From an uncultured Gammaproteobacteria bacterium (GTDB taxonomy: Bacteria; Pseudomonadota; Gammaproteobacteria; JABCZS01), in the NCBI GenBank assembly GCA_964443025.1, contig CAYUEL010000001.1:6155-70154 (forward strand): 64,000 nt of DNA, in the 5' to 3' direction. Made by a program: the position numbers. Of the stretch, positions 12,001-24,000 are shown piece after piece. Position 1 is the first letter of the stretch. The number at the start of each line of letters is the position of its first letter.

Positions 12001-15000
12001 AAGTAATCACGCCTATGTTTATACCATGATGTCTTCCATGTTGATTCATGCGCGCACAACGGGTGTATTAGCCTCTGCAGATTTTCTATGGTTAAAACCG
12101 TTAGATCGCCGCTTATGGTTTATATTAAATGGTACGGGAAAACACGTGGCATTTTGCGAAATTGCAGGACCTTTCAGCCATTGGAGAGCTGAACGCGCAT
12201 TAAAACGTAAAATCACGCAACCCATGGTTGATGGTGCTATTAAAGGTTTGCAAGAAGCAATCAAAGGTATTATTTACACGCGGGATGAAGAATAATGGCG
12301 AGAATAACGCGTGGTGTAGAAGAAAGACATGAGCAGAAACCGCAGCAGCTGATTCGTGATACGCGTCCCTTATCCGAACGTTTTATTGAATACATTAAAG
12401 ATCCCAGTTCCGCGATCATTATGCTTGTGGCTTTTGGTGCAAGTATTTTTTTATTACCCGCTGGCAATGATATTTTATTATTATTAGCAATTATCATGTT
12501 CATGGTTTGCATGCTCACCAAAAAAACATTGCCGTTTCGCTTACCAAAACGTTGCGGTTTACTTGATTACAATGATCTCACGCCGAACAATCAACCCAAA
12601 AAAGCCGGCGGCATTGTTTATTTTGGCAATGAAAAATCTACGAATCTCGAACTATGGTTTACCAATGAAGACATGCGGACACACTGTTTGATTTTCGGAT
12701 CTACTGGTTCAGGTAAAACCGTTACACTCATATCGCTTTCGTATAGTGCATTGTTGCAAGGATCGGGTTACATTTACGTGGACGGTAAAGGTGATAACTC
12801 ATTATTTGCGAATACGTTTTCGATGGCACGCAGCATGGGGCGCGAAGATGATGTATTACTCATTAACTTCATGACCGGTGCGCGCGATATTATTGGCCCG
12901 CAAAAAACACGCATATCCAATACCATGAATCCTTTTTCCATGGGTTCATCAAGCATGTGCGCACAGTTGGTGACGAGTTTAATGCCATCATCCTCTGCAT
13001 CACCTGATGGTGACATGTGGATGGGCCGTGCGATTGCGTTCGTTGAAGCGCTCATGAAAATATTGGTTTACATGCGTGATCGCGGTGATTTATTATTAGA
13101 TGCACACAGTATCCGTAATTATTTCACATTACACAAACTTGAATCGATTGCATTGGATAAACGTTTTCCACTCGAGGGTGAAAAAACTGTATCGATTGAA
13201 GACGCGCCTGATGTTGTGTTGCAACCCATCGCTAACTACCTTGATACATTGCCAGGTTTTCATCCGAGTAAAAAAGGTAAACAAAGTTCGGAAGTGTTGG
13301 AACAGCACGGTTTTATTACCATGCAATTAACACGCGTATTTACATCACTTGCAGATACGTATGGACATATCTTACGTACAGAATTACCCGAAGTAGATTT
13401 TAAAGACGTGGTATTAAATCGACGCATTTTGGTTGTATTATTACCTGCATTAGAAAAAGCACCCACGGAATTATCTAACTTGGGTAAAATCATTGTGGCA
13501 TCATTAAAAGCCATGATGGCGTCCGGCTTGGGTGAACAAGTCGAGGGTACGTATCAAGAAACGATTGAAATGAAAATCACCAATGCGCCCACACCGTTTT
13601 TATGTATCCTAGATGAATATGGTTATTATGCAGTAGAAGGTTTTGCTGTGGTACCTGCGCAAGCACGTTCACTCGGCTTCTCTGCAATATTCGCTGGACA
13701 AGATTTACCCGCATTCCAAAAGGCATCGAAAGAAGAAGCCTTATCCATCGGTGCAAACACCAACATTAAAATATGTATGAAATTGGAAGACCCAATCGAA
13801 ACGTGGGATTTCTTCCAGAAAACAGCGGGCGAAGCATTCGTCACACAAACAGGTGGATTTGAAACCAACGTCAGCAGCATGACGAACAGTTATCTAGATA
13901 CGCGCAGCGCATCCATTGAAAAACGCGCACGTATTGATCTATTGGATTTGAAAGATCAAGATGTCGGTGAAATGCACATCTTCTTTAAATCACGCATTGT
14001 ACGTGCACGATCATTTTATGCAAATCCAAAACCTGTTAAGCGCATGAAACTGAATCAATATTTAAAAATCAAGCCGCCGCCCGATGAAGATATTATTCAC
14101 ATTAATAACCGTCTGTTTTACTTTCAGGAATCATTTAAAGATCCACGTCGTTTGGATAAACAAGAGATTACCTTAGATGATGAATTGCAATTCATTTTAA
14201 AATACATGGATCAACATCCAAATTCTCCCGGAACACCGACCGCTGCCGCTGCATTCAGAGCCTATTATGATTTCGAGCACGGTGAAGAGGAAGTGTACGA
14301 TGAAGAACTCGAAGCCCCTGTTGAAGGTATGGATATTTTAACGCAACCCATGCCATCGCTCAGAGATATGGAAACGCTTGATCCTATGCAATTGCTCAAT
14401 ATGCCTGCTTACAGCGGACCATTGGTTGATAAAGTGGAAACACGTAAAAACATTGAACGTATCGAACGTTATTTCGGCGAACCGCGTAACCGTGCCACTG
14501 CTCATGCAACCCGTTTATTAAAAGATTTACGCGTTGCTACGAAATACCCGCCCGGCCATGTACCTCCTCCTACTAAAACCGAAACCCTCGAAGCGATGGA
14601 TAAACTTATCCAGTATTTCCATAAGTTGAAGGCTGAGGCGAAGAGTGAAAGTAAAGGATGATTATCCTGGGATACTGTTACTGTTTAATAACGTAGAAAA
14701 GTCAATGACCTCCGCAAAGTACCCACTATCTTTAACTGACTCGCTTACACCGTTAATATGAATCAAAACTGGAAAGCATGAAAATCCTTTAGGCAACACT
14801 AAACGTGCTATTTTTTCTTTCATCTCTTGAATAATATCATTCGTTATCTCATGTTGTGAGAATTTAACTTCACAGGCAAATAAAGTGTTAAATCGAGTCT
14901 GAATTAAATAATCTATTTGACATCCAGATTTAGTAGTAGATTTCCTCTGAAAAAAAGGATTATCAGAGATAATATCATTCGGAGATAAATTTAATAATTT

Positions 15001-21000: not shown

Positions 21001-24000
21001 TCGGATAAATTCTCTGAAATATCATACAACTGAGATGAATAGGCATTAAAATATTCAACTGCATGACAAGTTGGAATAGGTTTGTTACGGTAATCTTCTT
21101 GTAATAATTGATATCGACGACGAAACCGTTCGGAAAAACGTTCACTTGTGCTAGTAATACGTGCTAGTGTTTGTTGTTCACTTGGCGTGGTTTTAGTTGT
21201 GGTAGCGGAATGAGCAAGCAAACGGTCGTATTCTTCTCGCGCTTGCGCTGTGCCTAATGCTTCATAAGCATTGTTTAATTGCGCCATGTCGCTAACATTA
21301 CCTGATCTGTCTGGATGCAATAAAATGGCCTTTTTTCGATAGGCTTTTTTAATCTCATTTTGTGAAACACTTTTATCCAAACCTAATACAGCGTAATAAT
21401 CAACTCCCTTTTCAATGATCATTCCCAACCTCCTAACATTTAAAAATTAGAACACACTTCATTTTTTACAACAACCCCCCATTTGGGTAGTATTTTATTG
21501 TGCAAAAATGTGATTTAATCTACGGGGTGTATAACAGGCACCTATTCAACCACGGAGGTTTATTATGTTTCAAGAAATAGAAGGGCTTCTTAATGAAGCT
21601 GAATACGAAGCAACATTAGAAAACACCGATGCTGCTGATGCAGCCTATAAAAATGCCGTTAAACTGCTTGGAGAGAAAAAAACAGCTAACGGTATTAAAG
21701 AAATTTCAGCCAAAGTTTATCATGCTTATGGCTCTTTTTTAGTAGCGCAAGACGATCCAAGTAAACAAGGACAGGGGCAGAGCTATTTAACGATTGCAAA
21801 GAAATTTTCCAGTCAGCCAGTTGCTTCGCCATCTTCGTCTTCGTCCTCGTCATCATCATCTTCGTCGTCACCTTCTTCATTGTCGTCGTCTTCTTCGTCT
21901 TCAACACGTGCACCGGTGCGCAGCATGAGTGATAATCATGTCAACAAAGTACCTAGTAATTCCGCTGTACGAGCCATTTACGAAAAAGCAACGAAAGACG
22001 ATGATACGGATGCACAATTTTCTTTAGCTGAACATTACAGCCGTGGCGAAGGTGTTGAACAGGATTGGGAAGAAGCGTTGTATTGGTACCAACGCGCTGC
22101 GAGTCAAGACCATGTAGAAGCACATATCCAAATAGCTTTAATGTATTTTCGAGGTATCGGGGTACCTAAAAGTATTGAGAAAGCCGGTGAATGGTTTCGT
22201 AAAGTGGCCGGTGAACAAGGGGCATTACAACAATATTGTTTAGCGATGTGTTGCTCCGAAGGTTGGGGTGTTGCAAAAGATGAGAAGAAAGCATTTACAT
22301 TAGCTGAACAATCGGCATCACAACCAGGCGGCTGTGTGTATGCAGAATTTCAATTGGGACAAATGTATAATACGAAAGGGGCTAACAAAAATGTTAATCA
22401 AGCAAAAGCATGGTTTAAAAAAGCCGCTGATAAAGGTTATGCCCCTGCACAAAATAATTTAGGTAATCTTTATGGGCAATTATTTCAACAAGGAAACAGT
22501 GAAATCCCTCAAAACTACATTGAAGCCCGCAAATACTGGGAAAAAGCAGCTAACCAAAAACATGCGATGGGCGAATACAGTATGGGTCTGATGTTCTCTG
22601 AAGGAGCAGGCGTCACCATAGATTACAAGCAAGCTGTAGTATGGCACGAAAAGGCGGCGAAACAAGGCTATGCCCCCGCGCAAACACAGTTAGGGTGGAT
22701 CTTTCTGTGGGGAGCAGGCGGTATGCCAATAGAGAAAAACAAAGCACGTTCTTGGCTTAAAAAAGCAGCAGATCAAGATGACAGTATGGCACAGTGTAAC
22801 TTAGGTCGTCTTTGCGAAGACGAGCAAGATTACCATGCTGCAGCGGTATTATACAAAAAAGCAGCTGACCGAGATTATGAGTGGGCAATGTTCTATTTGG
22901 GCCTTCTCTATAAAAACGGATTTGGCGTTTCCAAAAATTACAACACCGCTCATGACTGGTTTAAAAAGGCTGCAGATTTAGGGCATGCCGAAGCGCAATA
23001 TTGGTTAGGTTGGTTGTACGAATATGGTCACGGCGTTACCCTAGACTACCCCACCGCATCTAAATATTACAAACTGTCAGCAGATCAAGGCGATGCAAGA
23101 GGGCAAGCTGGGCTTGGCATGTTATATGAGGAAGGTAAAGGTGTATCAAAAGATTTAACTACAGCCTTTGACTATTACAAAAAAGCAGCCGGCCAAGGTA
23201 ATAAGATGGGAAAATATTACCTAGCCAGCTTGTACAAAGAAGGCAAGGGTACCCGTAAAAATCTAAATGAGGCCTTTAAACTTTTTCTAGAGTGCGCGAA
23301 GGAAGACGATGAAGAGGCCATGATAACCGTTGGCTATATGTATGAAAAAGGCGATGGTATTGGACGAGACTATGCACAAGCCCGCCACTGGTACGAAAAA
23401 GCTGCCGCCAAGGATAATGCGCAAGCGATGCACAACATAGGTTGCCTCTATAAAGATGGAAATGGCGTCGATCAAAATTGGGATACCGCTAAGGAATGGT
23501 GGCAACAAGCTGCTAATCTTGGTCACAGCGATGCAAGCCGTGCCCTTCAAATTTTTGCACATCGCCACGGTTCTAATTCTTCATGCAGGATTTCGTAGTG
23601 AGCTATTTATAGATTATAAACAACCCCTCGAAAGAGGGGTTGTGGGTTTATTTACCCAACCCAAATTATGAGTTACAAAATTAGCGCTAACTCAGCAAAA
23701 AGGATTTTCAATATGGATACCTTGCATCAGCTTTGATGGCCGCATTAAGCGCTTATGCCCTACAACCCTTATCACTGTTTCATTTTTGCTTTATCATCAA
23801 GAGAACTTCCACCACCACCTCCACCTTTATTTTTGTCTCTTTCTGCCTTGGCTGCTTTACCAGCTGTACTACCCAGTTCATCGGATTCACCCGCTTTTTG
23901 AGCGCCTATTTCAGCACGGTACATATCGCCTTTCTGAGCGGCACCTGCATAACCCGCGCCCACAGCACCGGCACCTGTTTCGGCACCTGCTTTCGCGCTG

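Follow-up and report, generated by a model that had tools for sequence, protein, structure and literature searches.

What is a block of approximately 9 kb that encodes no secretion components doing inside the locus of a Dot/Icm-type type IVB secretion system (T4BSS)? This question is raised by a 64,000-nt stretch of contig CAYUEL010000001.1 from an uncultured Gammaproteobacteria bacterium (referred to here as the window; GC content approximately 42%), in which a Dot/Icm locus is present and the block in question separates icmO from dotA. The original prediction for this DNA had described the block as an accessory island of effector-like genes, and its account of the content proved correct: five genes, a palindrome, and a strong terminator, all foreign to the secretion system in kind, lie between icmO/dotL (12295-14661, plus strand; NCBIfam TrbC-type coupling protein) as the left boundary and dotA (23772-26255, minus strand; NCBIfam DotA) as the right boundary. 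From left to right, the genes encode a 493-aa ATPase (ATPase493), a DUF167/YggU protein, a small protein (an open reading frame, ORF, of 144 aa), a J-domain protein, and a Sel1-repeat protein (Sel1_677). We consider it likely that this block is a mosaic, comprising a PDC-S27 defense-candidate cassette, a stray DUF167 gene, and a module of a toxin with its Sel1 partner and its immunity protein. Thus, while the accessory character of the block stood up in our analysis, its unity as an effector island did not, as the modules are functionally unrelated and differ in their composition.

The longest gene of the block (ORF 17256-21428, minus strand, 1390 aa) probably starts at the ATG at 21422, seven bases after an AGGAGG, resulting in a product of 1388 aa (17256-21422). 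The same protein, identical in sequence, is recorded for a 78,761-bp NCBI contig that contains the 144-aa ORF as well. Its N-terminal J domain (residues 10-68, positions 21225-21401, minus strand; PF00226, E 4e-16) aligns to DNAJA1 with a conserved and intact HPD motif, and both H36 and D38 are invariant in the family alignment A2. The J domain is followed by a family core of approximately 1100 aa that is devoid of a Pfam family, the junction motif C.WVPAS..YGGV, a G/S/P-rich linker, and a candidate toxin domain that corresponds to the last approximately 133 aa (17259-17657, minus strand). A scan with residues 80-1250, i.e., leaving out the J domain, against 1.84 billion representatives revealed a family of 475 clusters (50% identity) at E <= 1e-3 and 144 clusters at E <= 1e-30, with an HPD near residue 31 in most full-length members. 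The homology of the J protein in BLASTP ends at approximately residues 1170-1260, and conservation in alignment A2 stops after the junction motif. Furthermore, 42 members harbor a junction motif of the form W[VI]PAS...YGGV and, after it, a G/S/N-rich linker, and the C-termini of these members fall into 16 mutually unrelated clusters, including an AHH nuclease (PF14412). Family members were found on low-GC contigs, and the window copy is the only one shown to originate from an organism with a Dot/Icm system.

The C-terminal domain of the window protein also occurs on other scaffolds. It is 49-64% identical to short ORFs labeled "filamentous hemagglutinin" as well as to C-termini that are preceded by an RHS repeat or PT-TG, and it shares 39% identity with the C-terminal end of a Janthinobacterium lividum plasmid protein that is annotated as "RHS repeat-associated core domain". 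Conserved motifs of the domain are GGGHIDLA and DNSSGHYxP, and its last approximately 20 residues can be aligned to the homologs from Rhs, PT-TG, and "filamentous hemagglutinin" contexts and are conserved among them. His55, Asp81, His86, and Glu99 (numbering of alignment A1) are invariant. The domain was modeled by AlphaFold2 with a predicted local distance difference test score (pLDDT) of 90.7; sequence and profile searches of the PDB returned nothing, including no close solved fold for the domain, and no meaningful Pfam match was obtained at E <= 1 for the toxin domain or the 144-aa ORF.

This small ORF (16837-17271, minus strand) overlaps the stop codon of the J gene. We consider its fifth codon, an ATG at 17259, the probable start, which would give a product of 140 aa (16837-17259): together with the toxin stop this codon makes up an ATGA overlap, a GGAG lies before it, and homologs start at the matching position. 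Homologs of the small ORF directly follow the toxin domain, usually overlapping the toxin stop, in three further loci (L082, E 5e-25; L083, 1e-17; L087, 8e-29), and a homolog was likewise found after the toxin domain on the J. lividum plasmid (L137, E 2e-8). A reciprocal search from the 144-aa ORF identified a 50%-identical protein (L140/L141), the upstream neighbor of which ends in the same toxin domain. The pairing of small ORF and toxin domain was seen in five unrelated contexts, and the organisms hosting the Rhs/PT-TG-type pairs have GC contents of 0.44-0.56 and show no relationship to the window lineage. Within the J family itself, for which 48 other loci were available (four contexts from an exact look-up and 44 from a metagenome scan), a small ORF with its start at -38 to +132 bp relative to the J stop is present in 21 of the 23 loci with room for it. 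These downstream ORFs differ between members (e.g., Imm11 and DUF6966), as is expected for genes that would provide cognate immunity.

Swapped C-termini, the presence of the same domain on other scaffolds, and a downstream small ORF that co-varies with the C-terminus are the observations from which the polymorphic-toxin reading follows. By the defining genomic features (PMC3482391), the J protein and the small ORF are a candidate polymorphic toxin-immunity pair, and we read the 144-aa ORF as the putative immunity gene. The J-domain protein pair of the earlier description is not typical of host-directed effectors; its architecture is that of a polymorphic toxin and its immunity protein. As a separate observation, an AHH-type toxin of the J family is followed by three related immunity-like genes (L090, 10277-12570; 189 aa, 288 aa and containing Imm11, and 190 aa), the first and third of which are 93% identical; arrays of immunity genes such as this one are typical of loci for polymorphic toxins.

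With the established CdiA-CT/CdiI and Rhs-CT/RhsI systems (PMC3482391), the pair shares a scaffold with swapped C-termini, a G/S-rich linker, a pre-toxin junction, and a cognate downstream gene. However, the head is a J domain and not a two-partner secretion (TPS), PAAR, LXG, WXG, signal-peptide, or other trafficking module catalogued in the accessible portion of that source, and the term "DnaJ" appears zero times in approximately 84% of the text of this 2012 polymorphic-toxin catalogue (PMC3482391). A conserved upstream, cytoplasmic Sel1-like partner and the Pfam-less core of approximately 1100 aa further distinguish the family from these systems. The literature searched contained nothing relevant on J-domain toxins together with Legionella and no description of the family as a class of polymorphic toxins, and J domains go unmentioned in an atlas of L. 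pneumophila effectors. The module therefore combines all genomic hallmarks of a polymorphic toxin with features that are unusual for one, i.e., a J-domain head, a conserved Sel1-like neighbor, and no known export signal.

The gene for this neighbor (21565-23598, plus strand; 677 aa) encodes 12 Sel1 repeats and a poly-Ser tract, with no N-terminal signal peptide by inspection. By tblastn, approximately 25 of the 48 other family loci have a Sel1-like gene immediately ahead of J and in the same orientation. At the ORF level, a large ORF ends 2-46 bp before the J start in 16 loci (with one outlier at 322 bp), and no such ORF is present in 3 loci that would have room for it. A Sel1 gene in divergent orientation to J was seen in the window only, and the promoter region between these two genes showed, by eye, no obvious tandem PmrA-like boxes. 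Sel1_677 shares repeat-level similarity with the partner family (E 1e-11 to 1e-17), and a hidden Markov model (HMM) of the partner scored it at 181 bits compared to 137 bits for a generic Legionella Sel1 protein. Since matches to the partner HMM are rare in IcmO loci (four in approximately 1.4 Mb, three of which are clear Sel1-type ORFs), a chance adjacency of Sel1 and J is unlikely.

The J and Sel1 domains are of a eukaryotic-like type, signal peptides are missing, and the block sits between T4BSS operons, all of which would also fit a different explanation, namely that the genes encode host-directed Dot/Icm effectors that were gained at a recombination hotspot, with the small ORF encoding a metaeffector or chaperone. 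Adjacent effector-metaeffector pairs such as MavC/MvcA-Lpg2149 and SidI-MesI are known in Legionella, in which a large protein is accompanied by an adjacent small neutralizer and the metaeffectors are co-translocated and act in the host. The window resembles these pairs in having a large protein next to a small candidate neutralizing protein in a Dot/Icm-bearing bacterium, a relative (L080, see below) carries a different gene at the same junction, and the Dot/Icm region of Coxiella burnetii holds horizontally acquired genes and effectors (bioRxiv 10.1101/2022.10.26.513839). However, homologs of the small protein are encoded next to Rhs, PT-TG, and "filamentous hemagglutinin" toxins of bacteria that are unrelated, suggesting a role in self-protection, and such a recurrence of the toxin/small-ORF pair is the signature of an antibacterial cassette. 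The C-termini of the J family include an AHH nuclease followed by Imm11-type genes, the icmO-dotA junction is empty in two of three relatives, and neither the ATPase gene nor the DUF167 gene resembles an effector gene. Similarity to the structure of MvcA/MavC (PDB 7bxf) is weak, with an underlying model of pLDDT 61. Moreover, none of the 48 other J-family loci (flanks of up to 10 kb) matched the Dot/Icm proteins of the window, which argues that the Dot/Icm position is not a conserved association. We consider an origin as host-directed effectors unlikely; the position of the toxin module inside the Dot/Icm locus looks incidental, with no conserved functional link.

It could also be that the module is not exported at all. 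Pfam and NCBIfam identified nothing but DnaJ on the J protein, i.e., no recognized secretion or trafficking domain, and no signal peptide was found, which would be compatible with an intracellular abortive-infection or addiction system with a DnaK-coupled J domain that, together with the PDC-S27 gene, would form a defense islet, and the toxin of which would be freed when the immunity protein is lost or when a phage perturbs the chaperones. The PDC-S27 defense candidate is a neighbor of the module, two family loci (L109 and L115) have a PDC-S27-like gene approximately 9 kb away, and toxin and antidote are tightly coupled by translation through the ATGA overlap. On the other hand, the same C-terminal domains occur on exported Rhs-type, PT-TG, and "filamentous hemagglutinin"-labeled toxins, and the core of approximately 1100 aa, the G/S-rich linker, and the pre-toxin junction motif are typical of polymorphic toxins that are delivered. 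A defense library, in addition, yielded no match for the J, Sel1, and small proteins, apart from one non-significant match of Sel1 (PtuA, E 0.0065). An intracellular system is, in our view, quite improbable.

For the preferred reading of a delivered polymorphic toxin, a sequence of steps can be proposed: within the producer, the immunity protein would bind the C-terminal domain and neutralize it, the J domain would recruit Hsp70 (DnaK or host Hsc70), the Sel1 partner could serve as an adaptor or chaperone for export or activation, and the toxin domain would act on a conserved target in another cell. The Dot/Icm T4BSS would be the foremost candidate for export in this organism, although we regard it as a doubtful one. 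Such an export is reasonable in view of the bacteria-killing T4BSS of Pseudomonas putida IsoF (kib), which encodes an effector-immunity pair inside its cluster and exemplifies that a T4BSS can deliver antibacterial toxins (PMC9519443). As in the kib system, toxin and immunity genes are located within a Dot/Icm-type cluster, and both proteins are predicted to be cytosolic, without classical signals (PMC9519443). In contrast, the kib pair is part of a conserved island and is genetically needed for killing and immunity, whereas the linkage of the window pair to dot/icm genes is confined to one lineage (0 of 48 other family loci), and its role is predicted. More speculatively, J-headed polymorphic toxins might constitute an uncatalogued delivery class, in which an Hsp70-recruiting J domain and a Sel1-like adaptor would feed exchangeable nuclease-type warheads to a secretion machine, Dot/Icm in the case of Legionellales-type organisms; we would give this idea little weight. 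If true, organisms of this group would wield Dot/Icm against other bacteria, or against both bacteria and hosts, and would possess the matching immunity genes, and the question would be raised of J-domain toxins that use Hsp70 and a T4BSS for their delivery.

How the block came to lie between icmO and dotA was addressed by mapping the window proteins with tblastn onto 80 IcmO-centered loci (Legionellales-type). The best IcmO match among 185,579 species genomes, at 90% identity, belongs to the metagenome-assembled genome (MAG) OFTM369 (L001), followed by two MAGs at 73% (L002 and L003) and by Rickettsiella, Aquirickettsiella, Legionella, and Coxiellaceae at 56-60%; the window belongs neither to Coxiella burnetii nor to another cultured species. 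The convergent icmO/dotA arrangement of the window is common to three relatives: in L001 (IcmO 90%), icmO is followed by dotA with approximately 80 bp between the stop codons; in L002 (73%), the gap between the two genes is 4 bp; and in L080 (58%), the junction contains one unrelated hydrophobic ORF of 225 aa without a Pfam match. For none of the five island genes was a relative found within 10 kb of icmO in the 80 loci, which contained only repeat-level Sel1 matches, and blastn revealed no island remnant or nucleotide similarity in the junctions of L001, L002, and L080, which the intergenic pieces of the window did not resemble either. A literature search for studies of T4BSS gene order yielded none. 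This comparison of synteny backs the earlier reading of an accessory island that was inserted here. Parsimony favors an accessory and lineage-specific block that would have been gained once in the window lineage, since the alternative requires three independent clean deletions.

This alternative, a block that was ancestral to the clade and was deleted independently in the relatives, draws on the facts that only three junctions are comparable, that the J-Sel1 part is native-like in its composition, and that the relatives have diverged, with a DotA in L001 that is only 53% identical. However, the deletions would have left gaps of 4 bp and approximately 80 bp without remnants, in relatives that span 90%, 73%, and 58% IcmO identity, for which a single gain is the parsimonious solution, and the ATPase gene is a strong compositional outlier (z -3.4), the product of which has its closest homolog in the plasmid collection in Desulfosarcina. 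We consider an ancestral block very unlikely. An assembly or binning chimera, which might be suspected for a metagenome-assembled contig given that the source appears uncultured, that the nearest relatives are all MAGs, and that look-ups of exact protein sequences were mostly without success (IcmO, Sel1_677, and the J protein with either its TTG or its ATG start recovered no contig), is hardly credible: the left and right flanks are parts of one T4BSS locus, each in synteny with relatives, the ORFs are intact, the junction is seamless at the codon level, and a single 78,761-bp NCBI contig contains both the J protein and the 144-aa ORF.

At the left end of the block, the icmO stop codon (14659-14661, TGA) directly abuts the ATPase stop codon (14662-14664, TAA on the reverse strand) with zero spacer, and the boundaries of the insertion can be resolved only to the flanking stop codons. 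At the right end, an intrinsic-terminator hairpin (23620-23653, plus strand) with a 10-bp stem, 6 GC pairs, and a T-rich tail was also called on the minus strand; this hairpin between the Sel1 gene and dotA may be a bidirectional terminator. No direct repeats at the island boundaries, no integrase, and no target-site duplication were detected, there is no tRNA anywhere in the 64-kb window, and Rfam at the gathering threshold had no match in the whole window. An RNA gene or a tRNA-linked island, considered as a candidate, was rejected on the basis of the Rfam result and the absence of tRNA genes from the window. The sole recombinase-like gene (29994-31175, minus strand) adjoins icmW and encodes a protein of 393 aa that weakly matches serine recombinases, "Recombinase", and HTH_62; it is also found beside icmW in L002, where the protein at the same position is 64% identical, placing it outside the island.

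We propose that accessory DNA would have gathered in the convergent, terminator-type icmO/dotA junction, where an insertion breaks no operon. The suggestion that this position is a hotspot found limited support in the four genomes that can be compared, two of which have an empty junction, one a single gene, and one 9 kb. Tight intergenic insertion occurs elsewhere in the same genome as well, as a paralog of the ATPase gene is wedged between etfB and etfA, and hence the icmO/dotA junction is not special in this respect. The block shows that the junction tolerates cargo and that the Dot/Icm loci of uncultured Legionellales-like lineages pick up conflict genes. A comparable case is the pathogenicity island (PAI)-like region of C. 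burnetii (bioRxiv 10.1101/2022.10.26.513839), in which genes unrelated to the secretion system, some of them horizontally acquired, are likewise found among dot/icm operons with variable gene order. However, that region contains tRNA, insertion sequence (IS) elements, and direct repeats, none of which is present here, and the cargo of the window consists of conflict genes and not of recognized effectors.

Two observations on the relatives deserve mention. In L002, the 2.5 kb of extra DNA between dotA and icmV was considered as a possible second island and rejected, since it corresponds to a tandem duplicate of dotA: two tandem dotA paralogs (12363-14870 and 14867-17317; 835 and 816 aa) lie between icmO and icmV. 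Furthermore, a contig labeled "Wolbachia endosymbiont of Folsomia candida" (L032, JBHGAL010000011.1) encodes an IcmO that is 57% identical to that of the window, and it is probably a mis-binned Rickettsiella-like contig.

The block is not compositionally homogeneous. Its GC content is 0.388, compared to 0.441 and 0.416 in the left and right T4SS flanks, respectively. At the level of single genes, with z-scores calculated relative to 27 other window genes, the ATPase gene (GC 0.341, z -3.4) and the 144-aa ORF (0.366, z -2.4) deviate most, followed by the J gene (0.387, z -1.5) and the YggU gene (0.395, z -1.2), and the Sel1 gene (0.437, z +0.5) is typical of the window. Several Dot/Icm-locus genes, i.e., icmS (0.389), icmV (0.392), and the gene for a 482-aa ORF (0.380), are as AT-rich as the J gene. 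The distance in dinucleotide signature (delta*) peaks at 14-18 kb (114-118 versus 59 +/- 21) and is ordinary over the J and Sel1 genes. These data support a foreign composition for the left (ATPase) end only. The claim that several island genes are more AT-rich than the Dot/Icm genes consequently holds for the ATPase gene and the 144-aa ORF, whereas the J, YggU, and Sel1 genes are inside the spread of the window. In the sliding analysis and the synteny comparison taken together, neither uniform composition nor identical junctions in the relatives were found.

The ATPase gene at the left end (14662-16143, minus strand; AAA-type, PF01637; cassette 1 of the earlier description) encodes a full-length match to the PADLOC candidate single-gene defense family PDC-S27 (PDLC04984; E 6.4e-87, residues 15-483). 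Its paralog in the window (40387-41844, minus strand; GC 0.362), which is flanked by etfA (39450-40382) and etfB (41976-42722), matches PDC-S27 over its full length as well (E 4.3e-103). According to PMC12988326, PDC-S27 proteins combine an ATPase with a fused PD-(D/E)XK domain; ATPase493 shows a C-terminal D...E.K motif by eye and a weak arsR-type helix-turn-helix match (Pfam HTH_5, E 0.007, below the cut-off). In the plasmid collection, PDC-S27-type homologs are scattered over rhizobial and haloarchaeal plasmids, and the best match of ATPase493 is a Desulfosarcina plasmid protein. With 46% identity to this protein versus 28% to the window paralog, the two window copies would have been acquired separately, and ATPase493 was probably acquired horizontally, independently of the paralog in the etfBA region. 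Based on its family assignment, we regard it as a candidate gene for defense against phages or other mobile genetic elements.

Directly upstream of each window ATPase gene, two inverted pairs of a gene-specific motif of 12-15 nt are found, 54-55 bp apart. For ATPase493, the motif TATTATGCACATAAT is present in four copies as two inverted pairs (42-nt unit, 55-bp spacing) at 16134-16230, immediately upstream of the start of the gene, and the array overlaps a -35/-10-like site; the array of the paralog is located at 41859-41947. Two distant plasmid homologs (Desulfosarcina and Ca. Paracaedimonas) have direct repeats of unrelated sequence with the same 54-bp spacing and at the same position, upstream of the start codon (L138, 1414/1468; L139, 1412/1466). 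Thus, a spacing of 54-55 bp is conserved in four unrelated PDC-S27-type copies, the repeat sequences of which are mutually unrelated. We read these repeats as putative gene-specific operators, an iteron array, or recognition sites for the DNA-binding domain of each ATPase. The window copies agree with PDC-S27 as known from PADLOC-DB and PMC12988326 in their full-length matches and in belonging to a family scattered on bacterial and haloarchaeal plasmids. They differ in that paired upstream repeats with 54-55-bp spacing are not mentioned in the passages of PMC12988326 that were consulted, and in their location in unusually tight junctions, abutting the icmO stop or between etfB and etfA, while the family itself has the status of a candidate defense system. 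Two copies with gene-specific paired repeats could provide a handle on regulation or recognition in this candidate defense family.

Between the ATPase cassette and the toxin module, the DUF167/YggU gene (16317-16592, minus strand; 91 aa) is intact and has full-length matches to Pfam and TIGR00251. It is not located beside the usual partners of yggU and is a stray gene in the block. Downstream of the toxin-immunity operon, a palindrome (16732-16806) with 28-nt arms that are 86% complementary and a 19-nt loop was predicted to fold into a very stable hairpin at -52.6 kcal/mol (z -5.7). A half-copy of the palindrome arm, matching in 17 of 19 nt, is present at 9240-9258 in the dotB-dotC spacer, with zero such matches expected by chance in 64 kb; the corresponding spacer in L001 has only approximately 22 bp. 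The half-copy may point to a small family of dispersed repeats in the genome, and the palindrome could be either a terminator or such a small dispersed repeat. The label that it had been given, likening it to repetitive extragenic palindromic (REP) elements or miniature inverted-repeat transposable elements (MITEs), is weakly supported by one full copy and one half-copy in 64 kb; terminal repeats and target duplications are missing.

Several points weigh against the mosaic with a delivered toxin that we favor. The way in which the DNA arrived is not marked by any mobility gene, tRNA, or target-site duplication. We could not identify a secretion signal, and the tail of the toxin is the same as in its Rhs, PT-TG, and "filamentous hemagglutinin" homologs, with no Dot/Icm tail added. 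The Sel1 gene of the window is divergent, not co-directional as elsewhere, and with the weak separation of its product from a generic Legionella Sel1 protein (181 versus 137 bits) it is a candidate member of the partner family. The J-Sel1 part is unremarkable in composition and could be old or native. Finally, the assignments of toxicity, immunity, and export derive from sequence comparison.

The remainder of the Dot/Icm locus is arranged on both sides of the block. To the left, icmS (10760-11152; Pfam T4bSS_IcmS) and icmP/dotM (11165-12295; Pfam DotM_C) precede icmO on the plus strand, and a set of minus-strand genes comprising icmG/dotF, icmE/dotG, icmK/dotH, icmL/dotI, dotB, dotC, and dotD lies left of icmS. 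To the right of dotA, icmV, the 482-aa ORF, icmX, and icmW are encoded on the minus strand, with NCBIfam matches for IcmV and IcmW and a weak TraW-like match for icmX. The 482-aa ORF (26702-28150, minus strand), located between icmV and icmX, encodes a multi-pass membrane protein with a sub-threshold match to BCCT transporters. Its position is kept in L001 (50% identity) and L002 (26%), and an ORF of the same size occupies it in L080, so that it looks like a clade-specific component of the T4BSS locus. Further to the right, a single ORF of 4398 aa (50783-63979, minus strand) stands out by its unusual codon-position composition, with a GC content of 0.585 at second codon positions (GC2) and 0.468 overall.

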